Source: a virus
Lineage: Duplodnaviria; Heunggongvirae; Uroviricota; Caudoviricetes
Strand: one strand, 5' to 3'
Virus record (IMG/VR): IMGVR_UViG_3300045988_153444
DNA: 32,473 nucleotides
Shown here piece by piece: positions 99 to 8,265 of this stretch. The position numbers and the translations under genes were made by a program. Within the stretch, counting starts at the first letter, position 1. The number at the start of each line of letters is the position of its first letter. A model generated the notes under the pieces. That model searched no databases, had not been told where the DNA came from, and was given only the letters and a program-made list of their open reading frames with translations.

Positions 99-368
99 AT
101 GAAAGTACAAGACCGTGAAGTAGTAAAAAACCTCCTGCAATACCTGACCTCAAAAAACCTGACGGGCAGCGTTGAGTACCGTGAAGCGTTAAAACATTTC
201 AACGTCACTACGGTTTATCGTTGGGAAAACAAACATTCTGAAAGACCGTATGTGGTGGATGTTTTTGCGCCTGATATTGAGTGCGGTTTTGAGCGCCATT
301 CATTCAAAAAGAAACATTCCGCTGATGTTTTTTGTGAGGTTGTATGTGCGGCAGGAGATGATGAGTGA
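99..368 (+). CDS. Hypothetical protein (89 aa)
   Basis: ORF with GGAG 8 nt upstream of ATG; stop overlaps the next ORF start (coupled). No recognisable family motif. Confidence 0.5.
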   Translation: MKVQDREVVKNLLQYLTSKNLTGSVEYREALKHFNVTTVYRWENKHSERPYVVDVFAPDIECGFERHSFKKKHSADVFCEVVCAAGDDE

Positions 369-1972: not shown

Positions 1973-2596
1973 ATGACAAAACATCTTAATGTGGTTTCTT
2001 TACCACTTTCTGTGTTGATTGGTTATGAAAAGAACGCTCGCACACACTCCGTGGAGCAGGTAGATCAGATTGTTGCCAGCATACAGGAGTACGGATGGAC
2101 TAATCCGATCCTGATAGACGAGAACAACGTTGTAATTGCTGGTCATGGTCGAATTGCTGCGGCCACTCAGTTGGGGATGGATGATGTTCCCTGCATTGTT
2201 CTGGCTGGGCTAACGGAGAATCAGAAGAAGGCATATCGTCTGGCCGACAACCGTATTCCGCTGAATGCTGGTTGGGATGAAGAGTTGTTAAGCGCGGAGC
2301 TTGCAGATCTTGCGGCCGATGATTTTGCTCTGGACTCAATTGGTTTTACTCAGCGCGAACTGGATAACTTATTGAGTGCGGCGGTCTACGATGACACAGA
2401 GGGTATGGATATCCCATTTGAGAAGGATGAGGCCAAATCAGGCGTAAAAGTTCAGTACCTGTCATTTGGAGGTCATAAAATCCCGGCAACGGATGAGGAA
2501 GCGGATCGTTTTGACTGCGCGGTGTCTCGTTATGTTGATGATAATGGCAGCTATATCGGATTTGTATCCGCATTGCTGGCTGGGGAGGTGTGCTGA
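1973..2596 (+). CDS. ParB-like nuclease (ParB N-terminal) domain protein
   Basis: ParB/Srx-type N-terminal pattern (…NPILIDENNVVIAGHGRIAAATQLGMDDVPCIVL…KKAYRLADN…). Paralog of the 5262-5852 product. Confidence 0.8.
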   Translation: MTKHLNVVSLPLSVLIGYEKNARTHSVEQVDQIVASIQEYGWTNPILIDENNVVIAGHGRIAAATQLGMDDVPCIVLAGLTENQKKAYRLADNRIPLNAGWDEELLSAELADLAADDFALDSIGFTQRELDNLLSAAVYDDTEGMDIPFEKDEAKSGVKVQYLSFGGHKIPATDEEADRFDCAVSRYVDDNGSYIGFVSALLAGEVC

Positions 2597-3969
2597 TGCT
2601 TCACCTGAATTACGACATAACGCACCTACGCGGCGCGGAATATAACCCGCGTTTTATCGGTGAGGATGATCTTGCGAGGCTGGCGGAAAGCGTCAGGGAG
2701 CTGGGGCTTGTGAAGCCATTGATAGTGCGCGGCGATTTGCTGGTGGCGGGACACCAAAGGACGAAGGCGCTACGTAAGTTGGGAATAACGCGTGCTGCGG
2801 TGTATGTGTTGCCCTGTGAAACGACGGTATACGACGAAGTACGGTTTAACCAACTGCATAACGGAACGGATTTTGATAGCGGAGATGAGCGTTGCAGGGT
2901 GTCCGGTCTGGAAGATAAGCATGGTTTTGTTCAGGTATCGGCAAGCCAGATCTCAGGCAATATGCGCGCGAAAATGGCATATGTTCGAAAGAACATAGCG
3001 GAACTGGTTATCAAGTATGGTCCGTGGGGTGGTTGTGTTGCTACTCAGTCTGGTGAGGTTATTCACTGTGCTCAGTATGCATTAGCAGCGAAAATGACGC
3101 GCACACCGCTAACGGTGTTTGTGATCCCTGATGTTGAGAAGGAAAAATACCAAAGTTATCTGAATAAAACTTATGGTGTATTTGAGTATTCTCATCTGGA
3201 GAAAACAACATACATCCAGACGTATGCGCAGCTTATGCGGTTGCGTAATGGTGGCAGCCTGAAATCAAACCTGTATGAGTCGTTGATCCTCCCGATCATT
3301 GCCAAGACGCCAAGAGGAATTGATTTTGGTTCGGGGCAGGGAGACTACGCGCGAATGCTCAGGGCAAAGGGATATAACCTGCATGATCTCGAGCTTTTCC
3401 GCCGTAAGGGCGCTGGAAACACTCTGGATAGGACCGCAACAAACCGGATGATTGATACGCTGGTGGACGACTTAAAAACGCGAGGGCGTTACGACTACGT
3501 GATTTGCGATAGCGTTTTGAACTCGGTCGATAGTGTCGAGGCTGAATGGTCTGTTCTGACGGTTCTGAAAGGCCTGTGTAAAGCTGGTGGGTCAATATTC
3601 TTTTCTGGTCGTAGCCGTGGAGAGCTGGAAACAGTCCTGAAGCAAACACAAGCGGCGAGTTCCAAAAGCCGGCTTTATTTTATTGATCATAACGGTTTTA
3701 CCGCGTTGTACCGGAAGGGGCACTGGTTTTACCAGAAGTTTCACTCTGATGATGAAGTGAAGCAGTTGTGTCGTGTACATGGTTTCAGGATTAAGCGGTC
3801 AATATTCAACTGTAAGAGCTGGTATTTGCACGTCATTAACGATGATTCCCTTAGTTGGGCGAGTCTGGAGAAAGCTGTTCGTTTTGAGTTTGAGTTGCCG
3901 TTGCCTGGTGGTTCAACAATCGGACGATCTGATGATGTGCTGGCGGCTTTCCGGCCGCTGATTAAGTAG
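2596..3969 (+). CDS. ParB-like N-terminal domain fused to a class I SAM-dependent methyltransferase fold
   Basis: N-terminus KPLIVRGDLLVAGHQRTKALRKLG (ParB-like). C-terminal half has motif I IDFGSGQGDY, an acidic post-I residue (HDLE), YDYVICDSVL and GGSIFFSG. No (D/N/S)PP(Y/F/W) amino-methyltransferase motif was found. ATG 2596 overlaps the upstream stop (TGATG) with GGGGAGG SD. Confidence 0.75.
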   Translation: MLHLNYDITHLRGAEYNPRFIGEDDLARLAESVRELGLVKPLIVRGDLLVAGHQRTKALRKLGITRAAVYVLPCETTVYDEVRFNQLHNGTDFDSGDERCRVSGLEDKHGFVQVSASQISGNMRAKMAYVRKNIAELVIKYGPWGGCVATQSGEVIHCAQYALAAKMTRTPLTVFVIPDVEKEKYQSYLNKTYGVFEYSHLEKTTYIQTYAQLMRLRNGGSLKSNLYESLILPIIAKTPRGIDFGSGQGDYARMLRAKGYNLHDLELFRRKGAGNTLDRTATNRMIDTLVDDLKTRGRYDYVICDSVLNSVDSVEAEWSVLTVLKGLCKAGGSIFFSGRSRGELETVLKQTQAASSKSRLYFIDHNGFTALYRKGHWFYQKFHSDDEVKQLCRVHGFRIKRSIFNCKSWYLHVINDDSLSWASLEKAVRFEFELPLPGGSTIGRSDDVLAAFRPLIK

Positions 3970-3985: not shown

Positions 3986-4705
3986 GTGGCTGACAGAATT
4001 GAGATAAAGATGGATTTTTCTTCTCAGGATATTCAACGGCAACTCCAGCGCATTGAAGAACGCGAATTGCCGTTCGCAATGGCGCTTACAGCAACCAGAA
4101 CGGCAAAGGCTTCTCAGGCTGCGATTAAGGATGAAATTAATCGGGTATTTGACAGGCCCACGCCGTGGATTCAGAACTCTACTTACGTTTTAGCCGCAAA
4201 GAAGAGTGATCCTACAGCCATTGTGTATGCTCGTGAATGGGGTGGAACGCCAGCCCCTGTAACGTTGACTCCGCAAATCGAAGGCGGCCAACGACAGTAC
4301 AAACGCTCAGAAGGGGCGCTAAGGGCTGGTGGATATTTGCCTAACGGCTGGCAGCTTGCTCCTGGTCCCGGCGCAAAGCTGGACAAATACGGGAATATTT
4401 CGCGGGGGCAATTACAGCAGGTCTTATCTGGCCTAAGAGTTCAGCGAGATGCGCATCAAAATCGCCGTCAGGGCAAGCCTACGGAGTTTTTTGTTGTTCG
4501 ACCTGGTACAAGTAACCCGCTTCAACCAGGCGTCTGGCAGCGCGTTGGGCGGCGTCCTACGTTGATCCTTACGTTCATCCAGCAACCTAACTATTCGCAG
4601 CGTCTTGATTGGCATGGCGTGGCGCTGCGTGCTGGTGAGGATGCGTTTGCTGATGAAGTCACAAAGGCTATTGATGACATCCTTTCTAAGACGTTCTCTC
4701 GTTAA
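3986..4705 (+). CDS. Hypothetical protein (239 aa), last gene of the ParB/methyltransferase operon
   Basis: GTG start with AGGAGG 5 nt upstream; no family recognised. Confidence 0.6.
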   Translation: MADRIEIKMDFSSQDIQRQLQRIEERELPFAMALTATRTAKASQAAIKDEINRVFDRPTPWIQNSTYVLAAKKSDPTAIVYAREWGGTPAPVTLTPQIEGGQRQYKRSEGALRAGGYLPNGWQLAPGPGAKLDKYGNISRGQLQQVLSGLRVQRDAHQNRRQGKPTEFFVVRPGTSNPLQPGVWQRVGRRPTLILTFIQQPNYSQRLDWHGVALRAGEDAFADEVTKAIDDILSKTFSR

Positions 4706-4889
4706 TCATCGTGTGGTTGATGGTGTTGTTATGCAGGGTGTATTCACTGTGTTCTGTAGCGTCGCTCGCTGGCTGTCTGTGGGGGAGCACGAGCATCGTT
4801 TCATCGTCCGGCAGAATTGGGTCCTTCTGGCCAAAAGCGTTGGATGCGGGTCATTCGAACCCCGATATTCGGCTAGCTAAACGTGAAAA

Positions 4890-5260
4890 AAGTTAGGTTA
4901 AAAGTTGCGGTAAAAGAAATTTACTCATCTCATTGAAAAATATCGGGAAAACGTGATTTTTTCTGTATTTGTGCTGGTAAGAAGAAAGTGGAAAATTTTC
5001 TTTTAGATCATCAAGATACGCGCAGATCTTTAACCAATGTGATGTTGTTCTGATAAAAATCGTTATAAATCATGCAAATACATCCAATCTTTTAACCAAA
5101 ACACCATCGCAAGATCCTTTTTACTTATAAAAACTTAATAAAATCAGATAATTATGCTGGTTTGTGTGATTTTTTATGAGTAAAAAGATCGTCATTTTTC
5201 TCTTTTAGTATCAATAAGTTAAACAGTTTTCTTTAACCTGTTGTGTTATGGCGGTTAAAA
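4890..5260 (+). promoter_or_regulatory. AT-rich non-coding region upstream of the packaging operon; candidate late promoter and/or cos/pac region
   Basis: No convincing ORF. Four GATC sites counted by eye (5006, 5026, 5113, 5187). TCTTT(T)AACC motif three times (5027, 5089, 5230). Function is inferred. Confidence 0.3.
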
Positions 5261-5261
5261 A

Positions 5262-5852
5262 ATGGCTCTAAAAATCGAATATTTACCAGTCGGTAAGTTG
5301 CTCAGATATGCCAAAAATTCACGGACTCATTCAGATGAGCAAGTTGAACAGTTGGTGAACAGTATCCGTGAGTTCGGTTTCACTAATCCTGTGCTGATCG
5401 ATGAAAAGAATGAACTGATTGCGGGGCATGGGCGGCTTGCAGCAGCCGAAATTCTGGAAATGGATAAAGTTCCGGCGATTCGGTTGAGTAACCTTTCTGA
5501 AAAACAGAAGAAGGCTTACAGGATTGCAGATAACAAGCTGGCCTTAAATGCTGGCTGGGATATGCAGCTTCTGGCCGAAGAAGTCAAAGAGTTAATGGAT
5601 GATGATTTTGATATTGATCTGCTTGGGTTTAATGATGCAGAGCTTGACGAAATGTTAAGCGATGAACAGCCGCAGGAAGAAGACGATAATTCTTCCCCTG
5701 TTGTTCAAATTAAGTACCTGGCTATTGATAAAGAACGTATTCCCGCGACGGATATGGAAATTGCATTGTTGCTGGATGTTTATCGTCAGTACCACGACGC
5801 GCATGAAACGCATGAGGGATTTGTTCAGTATCTTGCTAATGGTTGCAAGTAA
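5262..5852 (+). CDS. ParB-like nuclease domain protein (paralog of 1973-2596)
   Basis: …NPVLIDEKNELIAGHGRLAAAEILEMDKVPAIRL…KKAYRIADN…; collinear similarity to the first ParB-like protein. Confidence 0.8.
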   Translation: MALKIEYLPVGKLLRYAKNSRTHSDEQVEQLVNSIREFGFTNPVLIDEKNELIAGHGRLAAAEILEMDKVPAIRLSNLSEKQKKAYRIADNKLALNAGWDMQLLAEEVKELMDDDFDIDLLGFNDAELDEMLSDEQPQEEDDNSSPVVQIKYLAIDKERIPATDMEIALLLDVYRQYHDAHETHEGFVQYLANGCK

Positions 5853-6403
5853 TGGCCATCGTCAGTAAGTCAGAGTTTGCCCGCCGGAAAGGTATTTCTC
5901 CGGCAATGGTTACGAAGCTCTGTCGTTCCGGTCGCATTCCAGTGCTGAAAAGCGGCAAGCTGGATTTTGATAAAGCCAGTGCGGCTTATGAAGCGAGCCG
6001 ACAGGTTGGTCGTGAGGTATCTGCTGAAAATGGAAAAAGAGGGCATGGGATATCTTCGGAACAACCAGAGTTACCCGCTGATGATGCCGGATTAGCTGGT
6101 GGTACTTCCGGTGTTGCGGTGCAATTCAACAAGGCTAAGACCGCAGAAAAAATTTATCAGGCAAAGCTGAAACGCCTTGAATTTGAAGAAAAGGAAGGCT
6201 CTCTCATCGCTAAAGATGCGGTCAGGGATGATGCATTTCTGGCAGCTAATGAATTGCGTAGCCGCTTATTTAGTATTGCTCCAAGAGCAGCTCCCCGTTG
6301 TGAAGGCAAAACAGCCAGGGAGATCGAGCGCATTATTGAAGACGAGATTAATTTTGCGCTTCAGGCGCTCCAGGAATCCCGATTTATTAAGCAGGAAGAA
6401 TAA
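5852..6403 (+). CDS. Terminase small subunit (HTH-containing)
   Basis: Sits immediately upstream of the large terminase; N-terminal HTH-like segment (SKSEFARRKGISPAMVTKLCRSG). ATG 5852 overlaps the upstream stop (TAATG); ORF track extends to 5843. Confidence 0.65.
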   Translation: MAIVSKSEFARRKGISPAMVTKLCRSGRIPVLKSGKLDFDKASAAYEASRQVGREVSAENGKRGHGISSEQPELPADDAGLAGGTSGVAVQFNKAKTAEKIYQAKLKRLEFEEKEGSLIAKDAVRDDAFLAANELRSRLFSIAPRAAPRCEGKTAREIERIIEDEINFALQALQESRFIKQEE

Positions 6404-6408
6404 ACCTC

Positions 6409-8265
6409 ATGGGCGAAACAGTATGGAGCACCGCTTTTTTCCGTGCGCTTCGCCCTAAATCACGGCTAACTGTTTCCGAATGGGCTGATAAGTATCGTCA
6501 TGTAGCGCCGGGAACGTCTCCAGAGCCAGGGCCGTGGCGTACAAGCCGAGTGCCATATTTGCGTGAACCAATGGATGTTATTGGTGACGCTGATACAGAA
6601 ACAGTAGTGATGCAATGTAGCTCGCAAATTGGTAAATCCGAATTACAGCTAAATGTTATGGGTTACTTTGCAGATCAGGAGCCATCTCCTCAGTTGATGA
6701 TTTATCCAACGGTAGAGGCGGCTGAGGCTTTTTCAAAAGAGCGTATTGATCCGACGTTCAAATATTCCCCTGGTTTGAAACACAAGCTGCATGAAGGGAA
6801 AGAGGGGCGCGGTGCAGCCAAAAAGTCCAGCACGACTATACGTATGAAGCATTACGCTGGTGGATATATAGCACTTGTTGGTGCTAATTCCCCAGCAGGT
6901 CTTGCATCCAGGCCAATTCGAATACTGTTAGCTGATGAGATTGATCGTTACGGTGTGACGCAGGAGGGCGACCCACTAAAACTAGGTATTCAGCGTACTA
7001 CCAACTTTCATAATCGTAAGAAAGTTTTTGTTTCTACTCCTGTTTTGGAGGAAACAAGCAAAATCCACAAGTGGTTTAAGCTCTCCGATCAGCGTTACTA
7101 CCATGTTCCTTGCCCATGTTGTGGCACCATGCAGGTGATGAAATGGTCGCAAGTCAGATGGGATAAGAGCGATTCAGGTGAGGCGTTACCGGAAACGGCC
7201 AGATATGAGTGCTGTGAGTGCGGCGGGATTATGCGCGGATCTGGTAAACCAGACGTTGATTGGTTGGCGAAGGGGGTATGGATAGCTGAACATACTGGAG
7301 TTAAAGGTATTGTTGGTTTTCATATTAACAGTCTTTACTCCCCGTGGGTTGCATTGTCAGAGCTGGTTGAAGAATTTACGGAAGCAACCAGAAACCGCGA
7401 TAAAAATGGATTAATGGAGTTTATTAACCTTAAGCTGGGTGAGCCATGGAAAGAGGATGCTAAAGACGATATCGATCCTGAATACTTGTTGCAACGCAGA
7501 ATAAGGTTTGAAGAGTTTTTACCAGATGATGTTTTATTGTTAAGTGCTGGTGTTGACGTACAGGACACGTATTTAGTTTGTGAATTGGTCGGTTGGGGAA
7601 AAGGTAAGGAGTCATGGGGGATAGAATATAAAATATTCCCAGGTGATCCCGCACAAGATGTTGTCTGGAAACAACTTGATGAATACTTACTCCGTAGCTG
7701 GTCATTCCGTGACGGTCGAAAATTACAGATTTCTTCCGTTTGTATTGACTCTGGTGGGCATTTTACGACAGAGGTATATCGCTTTACTAAGCCGAGAGAA
7801 TCAAGGCGAATATACTCTATCAGGGGGCGTGGTGGGGTAGGTTTACCATTTATAGGAAAGCCAAGTAATAATAACCGTGTGGGTGCTATGTTGTTTAATT
7901 TGGGGGTTGATGATGGTAAAGGGACCATCATGGCAAGAATTAAACTACATGATCCTGGTCCTGGTTATATGCATTTCCCATTAGATTCTGACAGAGGATA
8001 TGATACCGAATACTTTAAAGGATTATTATCAGAGAAAAAAATATTTGAATATAAAAATGGGCAGACAAAAGAAAAGTGGGTGAAAGTCTACGAGCGTAAC
8101 GAGCCTCTTGATTGCCGTAACTATGCAACTGCCGCGATGGAAATTCTGAACCCTAATTTTAACTGGCTTGCCGAACAGGAAATGCGAGGTAATGTGTATG
8201 TGCAGAACTCGTCAGGTATACGTAGAAGACGCCGTAGAGTTATAAGTAAAGGCGTAACCATATAG
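6409..8265 (+). CDS. Terminase large subunit, lambda GpA family
   Basis: 618-aa protein, P-loop-like SSQIGKS, size and order (terS-terL-W-portal) typical of lambda-like packaging modules. Confidence 0.9.
   Translation: MGETVWSTAFFRALRPKSRLTVSEWADKYRHVAPGTSPEPGPWRTSRVPYLREPMDVIGDADTETVVMQCSSQIGKSELQLNVMGYFADQEPSPQLMIYPTVEAAEAFSKERIDPTFKYSPGLKHKLHEGKEGRGAAKKSSTTIRMKHYAGGYIALVGANSPAGLASRPIRILLADEIDRYGVTQEGDPLKLGIQRTTNFHNRKKVFVSTPVLEETSKIHKWFKLSDQRYYHVPCPCCGTMQVMKWSQVRWDKSDSGEALPETARYECCECGGIMRGSGKPDVDWLAKGVWIAEHTGVKGIVGFHINSLYSPWVALSELVEEFTEATRNRDKNGLMEFINLKLGEPWKEDAKDDIDPEYLLQRRIRFEEFLPDDVLLLSAGVDVQDTYLVCELVGWGKGKESWGIEYKIFPGDPAQDVVWKQLDEYLLRSWSFRDGRKLQISSVCIDSGGHFTTEVYRFTKPRESRRIYSIRGRGGVGLPFIGKPSNNNRVGAMLFNLGVDDGKGTIMARIKLHDPGPGYMHFPLDSDRGYDTEYFKGLLSEKKIFEYKNGQTKEKWVKVYERNEPLDCRNYATAAMEILNPNFNWLAEQEMRGNVYVQNSSGIRRRRRRVISKGVTI

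Follow-up and report, generated by a model that had tools for sequence, protein, structure and literature searches.

The window analysed here, a stretch of DNA of 32,473 nucleotides, is part of a circular E. coli phage-plasmid of ~47-49 kb with a lambda-like head and packaging module. The region under study is present in 72 of the 5426 complete E. coli genomes, and strains that carry the element include ATCC 25922 and SCU-204. Membership of the element in the pSLy3 group was considered and dropped, as pSLy3 falls within the SSU5 supergroup. A sequence-only reading had drawn attention to positions 4890-5260 as an AT-rich interval devoid of credible ORFs, and this description was correct: the GC content is 29% in the region and 43% across the window, and the ORFs inside it are just 20-24 aa long (none >24 aa). 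The genes encoding the following proteins lie directly downstream, the first of them starting at bp 414 from the cohesive end described below.

5262-5852, plus strand: ParB/Srx N-domain protein of 196 aa (Pfam ParB_N, phrog_620), encoded between the flagged interval and terS
5843-6403, plus strand: small terminase (TerS) with an N-terminal helix-turn-helix (HTH) (phrog_57, E 7e-42; RefSeq start 5852)
6409-8265, plus strand: large terminase (TerL) of the GpA family (Pfam GpA_ATPase, 7e-76; GpA_nuclease, 1e-84)

According to its Pfam and phrog_620 matches, the ParB-like protein consists of the ParB N-terminal domain only, with no HTH recognised. Used as a probe for plasmid relatives it was too promiscuous, returning 1178 records that were mostly unrelated; a profile search of genome contigs with the TerS alignment gave no confirmed hit. 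On the full plasmid, an MT-A70 methyltransferase gene and a ParB_N-methyltransferase fusion (2590-3969) are located upstream of the interval, and the RepA gene occupies window positions 28136-29113, ~23 kb away. The order cos, ParB-like, TerS, TerL is also found in the Vibrio phages X29 and XM1 (vB_VpaM_XM1), whose TerS homologues carry a small terminase annotation, and in the lineages L065, L071 and L073. As in lambda-type systems, a GpA-family large terminase gene is located downstream of cos. The elements of the packaging site itself that are nearest to the predicted genome ends are the following.

4819-4825, plus strand: cosQ-like heptamer GGGTCCT, 23 nt left of the left nick and unique in the window
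4849-4860, plus strand: cosN, putative 12-nt cohesive-end sequence GGTCATTCGAAC, coinciding with record termini; 5' overhang by homology
4861-4883, plus strand: cosN-proximal right flank CCCGATATTCGGCTAGCTAAACG, which resembles lambda bp 13-35 (CGCGGGTTTTCGCTATTTATGAA) and XM1 (CCCGCGTTTCGTCTAGCTACAAA)

The position of the ends is indicated by the termini of related database records. Those of the Yersinia phages vB_YpM_41 and vB_YpM_39 open with GGTCATTCGAAC (window 4849), and that of vB_YpM_44 closes with it (window 4860) and opens at CCCGAT (window 4861). These three near-identical records, all labelled circular, differ exactly in which end holds the 12-mer, and no publication was found on how their start points were chosen. 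The homologous sequence GGTGCTCGCGAC stands at both ends of the linear record of Vibrio phage XM1 and, minus its last base, closes the linear record of X29; in Acinetobacter phage HFM1 an 11-nt 5' cohesive end was annotated by PhageTerm at the homologous position. The 12-mer is identical in L071 and L073 and differs by one base in L065, being present in lineages with merely 52-57% TerS identity. Homology to the window starts at ~4817, and in the clade alignment the block 4817-4865 is almost invariant between clades that share ~69% identity in cosB and the surrounding DNA. These records point to unique ends with a 12-nt cohesive sequence at cosN, the polarity of the overhang being predicted from homologues. 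A full-text literature search for the 12-mer returned one yeast paper, unrelated to the subject.

The local sequence around the putative nicks resembles that of lambda in several respects. The left nick is flanked by CG/GG (the slash marks the nick) as in lambda, whereas the right one is flanked by AC/CC instead of lambda CT/CG, and three of the six symmetric positions within the 12-mer obey two-fold symmetry. CG dinucleotides at both nicks and a partial two-fold symmetry of cosN were described for lambda-like cos (PMC4669245). In the right flank, TTCG.CTA is common to lambda and the element, and CTAG at bp 25-28 is retained in every lineage examined. The heptamer GGGTCCT, which we take to be lambda cosQ, stands at the same 23 nt before the nick at the right end of lambda and likewise in XM1 and X29; in L071 and L073 it stands 22 nt away, and L065 has AGGTACT at the same position. 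Comparison with lambda, XM1 and X29 gives a conserved 7-bp element at a fixed distance left of cosN, and cosQ was described as a highly conserved 7-bp site (PMC4669245).

Taken together, the record ends and the register with lambda place cosQ and cosN just left of the flagged interval and assign the interval itself to cosB. The earlier proposal of a cos/pac site is therefore upheld in part: the region does belong to the cos of a GpA-family terminase and is directly upstream of the packaging genes, but cosN (4849-4860) and the cosQ-like heptamer (4819-4825) fall 30-70 bp to its left. On the basis of sequence comparison the flagged interval is the putative terminase-recognition part of cos, which would span roughly 4817-5261, with 400 bp (4861-5261) corresponding to cosB. 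The features identified in it are listed below (bp are counted from the cohesive end).

4896-4905, minus strand: site 1, R3-equivalent, GGTTAAAAGT, reverse complement ACTTTTAACC (bp 48-57)
4909-4917, minus strand: site 2, GGTAAAAGA (bp 61-69); a copy at bp 61-63 in 6/6 enterobacterial lineages
4976-4985, minus strand: site 3, degenerate, GGTAAGAAGA (bp 128-137)
5006-5009 and 5025-5028, no strand assigned: two non-conserved GATC, both lost in clade 2
5027-5035, plus strand: site 4, TCTTTAACC (bp 179-187); position kept at bp 180-183 in all lineages
5088-5097, plus strand: site 5, TCTTTTAACC (bp 240-249); position kept at bp 241-257 across lineages
5113-5125, plus strand: site 6, GATCCTTTTTACT, left arm of an inverted pair; contains GATC 5113 and pairs with 5179-5190
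5142-5154, plus strand: IHF-consensus match AATCAGATAATTA (WATCARNNNNTTR), with an A-tract before it and midway between the inverted arms
5179-5190, minus strand: site 7, AGTAAAAAGATC, right arm of the inverted pair; contains GATC 5187
5209-5221, plus strand: second IHF-consensus match TATCAATAAGTTA, kept in L017 and absent in clade 2
5230-5238, plus strand: site 8, TCTTTAACC (bp 382-390); position kept at bp 377-388 in all lineages

The three copies of TCTTT(T)AACC noticed earlier are indeed present (TCTTTAACC at 5027 and 5230, TCTTTTAACC at 5088), and inverted or looser copies had been missed at 4896-4905, 4909-4917, 4976-4985, 5117-5125, 5179-5187 and 5253-5262. The strict pattern occurs 3 times against 0.01 in dinucleotide-preserving shuffles, and a relaxed one 7 times against 0.27, a statistic that is optimistic because the latter pattern was defined after inspection of the data. 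Five of the eight TTTAACC heptamers of the window, both strands counted, fall in the 370-bp region. The array comprises 7-8 sites with a consensus of about CTTTT(T)A(A)CC, located at bp 48, 61 and ~130 (minus), 180, 241 and ~270-316 (plus), 331 (minus) and 383 (plus); the copies at bp 48, 61 and ~128 face one way, most distal ones (180, 241, 269, 383) face the opposite way, and that at bp 331 is inverted. Positions and orientations are kept in six lineages (bp 48, 61 and 130, minus; 181, 242, ~316 and ~383, plus).

The clade alignment shows no variation in the block AAAARTTAGGTTAAAAGT, of which site 1 is a part. All six enterobacterial lineages have a motif copy that begins at bp 48; in X29 and XM1 it begins at bp 50-51. 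R3 is located at bp 50-65 in lambda and at bp 48-60 in N15 (PMC9026076); by its position, site 1 (bp 48-57) is thus a candidate R3-type TerS site, such a site being expected ~48-65 bp from the first base of the cohesive end. The Yersinia phages, L009-L011 and clade 2 have a perfect version of site 3 (GGTAAAAAGA), and lineages with other motifs have a copy at bp 128-130. Site 4 is missing from vB_YpM_44, in which a deletion of 90 bp (window 4986-5075) removes one motif copy together with GATC 5006 and 5025. Since this phage tolerates the loss of one site, not every motif copy is necessary, which suggests that 4986-5075 is dispensable. In site 7, GTAAAAAGA is invariant and the next T nearly so, and one position of the arm shows covariation with its left counterpart.

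cosB contains two IHF-consensus matches where shuffles predict 0.10, and a match at bp 294-296 is retained in the window, clade 2, L017 and L073. The arms 5117-5125 and 5179-5187 flank the match at 5142-5154, an arrangement of inverted sites around a putative IHF site that recalls lambda, where the centres of R3 and R2 are 59 bp apart around I1; the inverted copies of the element are 65-66 bp apart, centre to centre. This module is located at bp 269-339 and not beside the R3-equivalent.

The motif switches between lineages (TCTTTTAACC, TTTGTTAACC, AGTGTTAAC), and the HTH helix of TerS switches with it (ISPAMVTKL, LSR(P/A)A(V/I)TKL, RSHVWVKKL). In L071, L073 and L065, GTTAAC occurs 7-11 times against 0.13-0.20 in shuffles. 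An AF2 model of TerS shows an N-terminal HTH weakly like MerR/excisionase-type folds, the matches behind the winged-HTH assignment being weak (Pfam E 0.004-0.09; Foldseek E 0.17 or worse). TerS gave no Pfam Phage_Nu1 match and a BLASTP E of 0.41 against lambda Nu1; as it is not of the Nu1 family, the lambda-type classification of the site applies to cosQ, cosN and TerL, and its TerS/cosB specificity module is a different one. The co-variation of motif and helix is consistent with TerS being the protein that binds the motif copies through its N-terminal HTH. Against this, the gene of the ParB-like protein, situated between cosB and terS, is just as near to the array. L033, in which a TerS apparently 49% identical stands beside a clade-2 cosB, was considered as a specificity test and set aside as uninformative, because its terS is frameshifted.

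We consider it highly probable that the locus is a long cos site of the lambda type (cosQ-cosN-cosB) served by a GpA-type large terminase, in which the flagged region is cosB. The end positions derive from database records, and the conservation, geometry and motif/HTH co-variation from sequence comparison; from these we infer the identity of the binding protein, the binding of IHF and the polarity of the overhang. By analogy with lambda, TerS would bind the cosB sites through its N-terminal HTH, assisted by host IHF bending and possibly by DNA wrapping, and the copy at bp 48-57 would act as lambda R3, placing the large terminase for cosN nicking. Staggered nicks on both sides of GGTCATTCGAAC would generate the 12-nt cohesive ends. 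The complex would then remain on the cosB end, dock on the portal and package rightward, with cosQ and cosN serving for termination at the next cos.

The clustering of GATC was also confirmed, with four sites in 185 bp (starts 5006, 5025, 5113 and 5187); no other 185-bp stretch of the 32.5-kb window holds four, and the window average is 2.7 per kb. Among 2000 dinucleotide-preserving shuffles of 4861-5261 the mean was 0.86 GATC and four were reached in 0.7%. The enrichment is real but modest, the region having been chosen after the fact. Each of the four sites directly adjoins a full or half T-tract motif (GATCTTTAACC, GATCCTTTTTAC, reverse complement GATCTTTTTAC, TCTTTTAGATC), so the GATC cluster and the repeats are one feature and not two. 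A Dam-methylation-sensitive switch, by which the cluster would gate a promoter or, as in P1 pac, terminase cleavage, could draw on this enrichment, on the methyltransferase genes upstream and on the retention of GATC 5113 and 5187, located in conserved inverted arms beside the IHF consensus, in most E. coli-type sequences. However, cosB lacks any GATC in five related lineages of the same architecture (L065, L071, L073, X29 and XM1), the sister clade (clade 2) has two, and some of its members have lost 5113 or 5187 (GCATCC, GATT, GAAC). GATC 5006 reads GATA in vB_YpM_41, and the terminase is a cos-type GpA enzyme rather than a headful pac enzyme. Fixed 12-mer record ends and GATC repeats that are neither conserved nor all retained also differ from what a P1-type pac would have. 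Given the five lineages devoid of cosB GATC and the deletion of 4986-5075 in vB_YpM_44, the switch that had been proposed finds no support and is judged very improbable. Rather than forming a signal of their own, the GATC sites mostly belong to or adjoin motif copies in this one lineage, and their clustering is probably incidental. Even more remote is an iteron-type replication origin resembling P1 oriR or oriC, to which we assign a negligible probability. Origins typically combine short repeats and an IHF consensus with low GC and enriched GATC, but the RepA gene has no motif copy near it, there is no adjacent initiator gene, the sites keep fixed positions with respect to cosN that agree with lambda R3, and phages of different hosts carry the array together with the terminase genes.

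Transcriptional control of the head operon, through a late promoter and/or an RNA hairpin at 5113-5190 acting as attenuator or terminator, is compatible with the cos reading, and the two are not mutually exclusive. The long AT-rich intergenic stretch stands directly upstream of a long co-directional operon, and the imperfect palindrome 5113-5190, taken as a single sequence, has a predicted RNA fold of -25.7 kcal/mol (z = -5.07), followed by the U-rich GTCATTTTTCTCTTTT; one base-pair change is compensatory, and every wobble change is U-G on the plus strand. The late promoter suggested earlier was nevertheless not found: a scan of 4400-5500 for activator-independent promoters detected no sigma-70-like -35/-10 hexamers at 16-18 bp spacing, against 2.1 in shuffles. 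A terminator scan of 4400-5500 gave none in the region, and Rfam gave no match for it, the sole hit at a permissive E-value being a fragment of RNase P matched by chance within the ParB-like gene. The conserved part of the hairpin is just a 13-bp AU-rich outer stem, its 50-nt interior not being conserved (covariation term -0.48), and its arms are copies of a motif that recurs outside any palindrome; in the Vibrio relatives, the ~140 bp from cosN to the first gene are filled with motif repeats. Since the clade alignment retains no more than the outer stem with one compensatory pair, the hairpin is kept just as a minor rival, and a role in transcription is considered unlikely.

A parS-like array for the ParB/Srx-domain protein (5262-5852), with TerS not the binder or not the sole one, is similarly doubtful. 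In ParABS systems the gene of the centromere-binding protein is usually beside its sites, and the ParB-like gene stands between the array and terS in all enterobacterial lineages examined and in the Vibrio phages. The 196-aa protein is however a ParB N-terminal domain alone, and this domain stays nearly constant across lineages in which the motif, and with it the TerS HTH helix, differs; HFM1 has cos-TerS-TerL without a ParB-like gene, and site 1 is exactly at the lambda/N15 R3 position. With a comparably small chance of being correct, the array might be the place where a larger nucleoprotein complex is loaded, with the ParB/Srx-domain protein in it as an obligatory cofactor of packaging specificity or cos cleavage, the GATC of the inverted arms possibly adding methylation sensitivity in the E. 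coli lineage. HK97-type terminases, by comparison, have an HNH partner. As regards geometry, arrays of 7-10 sites ~50-75 bp apart over 400-550 bp are conserved.

Among known systems, the lambda-type reading relates the locus most closely to the cos of lambda (also of 21, phi80 and Gifsy-1), with its cosQ-cosN-cosB layout and R3-I1-R2-R1 arrangement. Both have a GpA-family TerL, 12-nt cohesive ends, GGGTCCT 23 nt left of the nick, a left nick at CG/GG and a similar right flank. The first site is at ~48-57 bp here and R3 at 50-65 in lambda, inverted sites surround an IHF consensus, and cos is just upstream of the terminase genes, with packaging towards them. In contrast, the cohesive end of lambda is GGGCGGCGACCT instead of GGTCATTCGAAC, and the right nick flank is CG in lambda-like phages and CC here. 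The cosB of lambda has 120 bp and 3 sites, that of the element ~400 bp (three times longer) and 7-8 sites. The element has a TerS outside the Nu1 family and a ParB-like gene between cosB and terS, and the replicon that carries the site is a contractile-tailed plasmid prophage.

The site is therefore an ordinary, though unusually long, case of the well-known cos kind. The understanding of cos packaging is unchanged by it, and the more exotic reading as a Dam switch is removed. Exact predicted ends and packaging signals become available for a widespread, uncharacterised group of ~48-kb E. coli phage-plasmids, which helps to annotate these plasmids, to decide whether they are packageable phages and to predict terminase-DNA pairing. 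The fixed positions combined with a switched motif offer a natural specificity-swap series for TerS-cosB recognition outside lambda.

N15 shares with the element the plasmid prophage, a lambda-type cosQ and cosN and a site in the R3 position (bp 48-60; PMC4669245, PMC9026076), but it has a simple cosB with one R site, no IHF site and terS from bp 89, unlike the many sites and the first gene at bp 414 of the element. X29, XM1 and HFM1 have homologous TerS proteins (35-47% identity by tblastn or alignment) and records that end at the homologous 11-12-nt sequence. The two Vibrio phages also share the gene order and repeated GTTAAC-core sites from bp 50-51, although their cosB is compact (~140 bp, five repeats, 42-45% GC) and devoid of IHF consensus and GATC, and HFM1 differs by having no ParB-like gene. 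P1 pac resembles the locus in the enrichment of GATC in the packaging recognition region and in a nearby IHF site. It belongs nevertheless to a headful system with essential and conserved GATC repeats, whereas those of the element are lineage-specific, partly deletable and associated with a cos-type enzyme.

Among 5426 complete E. coli genomes, 72 match the DNA in the window at 96–100% identity, in 71 cases on a plasmid; the plasmids are circular and ~47–49 kb long. Further matches are to two induced phages of E. coli and to three of Yersinia pestis (vB_YpM_39, 41 and 44). The annotation of an identical plasmid, pSCU-204-5, lists RepA, ParA and an XRE repressor together with holins, an endolysin, a contractile tail and a head module like that of lambda, which makes the element a phage-plasmid, i.e., a plasmid prophage. 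Its RepA gene lies inside the window (28136-29113); in addition, the complete plasmid has genes for ParA, a RelE/ParE toxin, an MT-A70 methyltransferase and tRNA-Ile just beyond it. Downstream of the region 4890-5260, the subject of this section, the following genes are found.

Genes downstream of 4890-5260
5262-5852, ParB/Srx N-domain protein
5843-6403, small terminase TerS (phrog_57, E 7e-42)
6409-8265, large terminase TerL, GpA-family
head-tail adaptor (phrog_118)
portal, lambda-family

The sequence-only reading had described 4890-5260 as AT-rich DNA with no credible ORF, clustered GATC sites and repeats of TCTTT(T)AACC, all of which was borne out. The GC content is 29–32% across ~4850–5300 against a window average of 43% (52–56% just upstream), ORFs inside the region reach only 20–24 aa, GATC starts at 5006, 5025, 5113 and 5187, and the repeats are TCTTTAACC at 5027 and 5230 and TCTTTTAACC at 5088. 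No other stretch of the window holds four GATC in 185 bp, and dinucleotide-preserving shuffles of 4861-5261 contained 0.86 on average and reached four in 0.7% of cases, an enrichment that is real but modest in a region picked after the fact. Enrichment of the strict repeat is far higher (3 copies observed versus 0.01 expected from shuffles), and 5 of the 8 TTTAACC heptamers of the window fall in the region. Each of the four GATC touches a copy or half-copy of this T-tract motif; therefore, the two observations are one feature.

The cut site was located using end positions taken from database records of related phages. The records of vB_YpM_41 and vB_YpM_39 start with GGTCATTCGAAC-CCCGAT and end with GGATGCG, and that of vB_YpM_44 starts with CCCGAT and ends with GCG-GGTCATTCGAAC, so that the position of the 12-mer (window 4849-4860) at opposite ends is the exact and sole difference in termini among the three assemblies. 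A 12-mer switching ends between assemblies is typical of a 12-nt cohesive end. Three more distant phages have a homologous TerS, and their ends agree: Vibrio phage XM1, a linear record, has GGTGCTCGCGAC at both ends, the X29 record starts right after GGTGCTCGCGAC and ends in it minus the last base, and Acinetobacter phage HFM1 has an 11-nt 5' cohesive end at the homologous position (PhageTerm-based annotation). We infer the polarity of the overhang at this site, cosN. The 12-mer is single-copy in the window, as is GGGTCCT, and is identical in lineages whose TerS proteins share only 52–57% identity. In an IMG/VR sister clade with intergenic DNA only ~69% identical, homology to the window starts at ~4817 and 4817-4865 is almost invariant.

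GGGTCCT (4819-4825), which we take to be the cosQ of lambda, lies 23 nt left of the nick, the same distance as at lambda's right end in an in-register alignment. The left nick context, CG|GG, is shared with lambda and the right flank is similar (TTCGGCTAG in the window versus TTTCGCTAT). On cosQ, PMC4669245 confirms a highly conserved site of 7 bp and no more. Overlapping cosQ and cosN are two mechanical ORFs, 4605-4880 (91 aa) and 4711-4896 (61 aa), which are unlikely to be genes, because no family was matched where tested and the sister clade shows no homology upstream of 4817. The last gene before cos encodes a 239-aa protein (3986-4705; phrog_1924, labeled "minor tail protein", no Pfam match) which is kept in position with 84–86% identity in five relatives' loci (L017, L021, L024, L029 and L033), and L071 and L073 have a 239-aa gene at the equivalent place. 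From its stop codon to cosQ (4706-4816), the DNA is unconserved.

To the right of cosN, the three repeats belong to a larger array, as its sites 4, 5 and 8; the relaxed form of the motif pattern was defined post hoc from data already inspected.

Motif copies in the window (bp 1, first base of the cohesive end, is 4849)
bp 48, minus (first copy, bp 48-57)
bp 61, minus
bp 128, minus, degenerate in the window and perfect in close relatives
bp 180, plus
bp 241, plus
bp 269, plus
bp 331, minus
bp 383, plus
bp 405, minus, doubtful, overlapping the region where the next gene starts

Five other lineages carry copies at near-identical positions and orientations.

Sites in relatives' loci
L021: 48-, 62-, 130-, 180+, 243+, 318+, 333-, 385+
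L017: 48-, 62-, 182+, 243+, 272+, 331-, 383+
L071: 48-, 61-, 128-, 180+, 241+, 313+, 377+
L073: 48-, 61-, 130-, 182+, 198+, 243+, 316+, 383+
L065: the common series, running on to bp 528

The recognition site R3 occupies bp 50-65 in lambda and bp 48-60 in N15, and its distance is reported to be critical for nicking (PMC9026076). A match to the IHF consensus WATCARNNNNTTR at 5142-5154, preceded by an A-tract, is centered between inverted copies at 5113-5125 and 5179-5190 and is kept at bp 294-296 in four lineages; the arm centers are 65–66 bp apart versus 59 bp for R3/R2 flanking I1 in lambda. The conserved array, the first copy at the R3 position and the inverted copies around the IHF-consensus match identify the interval as cosB, the part of cos that terminase recognizes. 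The proposal that it contains the cos/pac site thus holds in that it belongs to cos, with the packaging genes downstream, and fails for the cut itself, which lies at 4849-4860, outside 4890-5260.

The motif differs by lineage, and a switch in motif goes with a switch in the second HTH helix at the TerS N terminus.

Motif and TerS HTH helix by lineage
window and sister clades: (T)CTTTT(A)ACC, ISPAMVTKL
L065, L071, L073: TTTGTTAAC(C/T), LSR(P/A)A(V/I)TKL
Vibrio phages: AGTGTTAAC, RSHVWVKKL

We infer that protein binds to the motif sites. The AlphaFold model of TerS (mean pLDDT 75) has an N-terminal helix-turn-helix, for which Foldseek returned only weak likeness (E >= 0.17) to winged helices of MerR/excisionase type, among them P2 Cox and a chain from the PICI Rpp study; comparison with Nu1 gave no Nu1-family membership. 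Unlike the TerS helix, the ParB-like N-domain is almost constant across the motif-switching lineages. Three such ParB/Srx paralogues occur in the window (1973-2596, 2590-3969 and 5262-5852), the second fused to a SAM-methyltransferase-like domain (Pfam Methyltransf_23; phrog_5475, function unknown). The position of the third between cosB and terS, kept in enterobacterial phage-plasmids, X29 and XM1, hints at a packaging-linked role; HFM1 has no ParB-like gene there.

A Dam-sensitive switch, also proposed for the region, is not supported in the form of a P1-like gate. GATC is absent from cosB of L065, L071, L073, X29 and XM1, vB_YpM_41 has GATA in place of GATC 5006, and vB_YpM_44 (L003, OR545055.1, a deposited phage isolate) has lost two sites; thus, by sequence comparison, the cluster is lineage-specific and half dispensable. 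GATC 5113 and 5187 are better conserved as parts of inverted motif copies, although lost in some members of clade 2, the sister clade, whose cosB has two GATC, both within inverted arms. In the E. coli lineage, methylation might still have a slight effect. The loss in vB_YpM_44 is a natural 90-bp cosB deletion (window 4986-5075) that removes the motif copy 5027-5035, one TCTTTTAG half-copy and GATC 5006 and 5025, which suggests that the array is redundant.

A regulatory role would be compatible with cosB and is a minor rival to it. The late promoter suggested earlier did not emerge from a sigma-70-like scan of the region, where no terminator-like site was found either, and an Rfam scan gave no match. 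As RNA, the palindrome 5113-5190 gives a good fold (z = -5.07), but conservation is limited to a 13-bp AU-rich outer stem, in which one pair is compensatory, and the arms of the palindrome are copies of a motif also present outside any palindrome. With all flanking genes pointing the same way, transcription of the late genes may just run across cos, as it does in lambda.

The site is a lambda-type cos because of its cosQ, cosN, R3 position, IHF-flanked inverted sites and GpA terminase. It differs from lambda in the cohesive-end sequence, in the right nick flank (CC versus CG), in a TerS of another family, in a cosB 3–4 times longer with 7–10 sites, and in the ParB-like gene between cosB and terS, a synteny common to Vibrio phages. 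By analogy with lambda, TerS would bind the array via its HTH and IHF would bend the DNA between the inverted copies, while the site spacing would suit wrapping around a TerS oligomer. The R3-position site would set the GpA nuclease on cosN, the nicked complex would stay on the cosB end and package rightwards, and cosQ with cosN would end packaging at the next cos. A full-text literature search for the 12-mer found no paper describing this cos site. The site holds no surprise, but it should help annotation and offers a natural series of TerS/cosB specificities.

In cosB of the window (4861-5261) and in its counterparts in L021, L071, L073 and L065, one site follows the next at ~50–75 bp (48/61, 130, 181, 242, 316, 383), a spacing that holds across lineages with different motifs. 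A ~40-bp composite unit (TCTTTTAG, ~20 nt with ATCAA, then TCTTTAACC) occurs twice, at 4996-5035 and 5198-5238, 202–203 bp apart, and several further short repeats share a 183–215 bp register, which suggests that part of cosB was duplicated internally long ago. Among the relatives, terS is frameshifted and broken in L033 (3001-3540), a Transposase_31/Rpn-type gene lies immediately 3' of terL in L071 (4964-5561) and L072, and a gene call in L073 (3062-5558) joins terL to portal, with a product of at least 966 aa.
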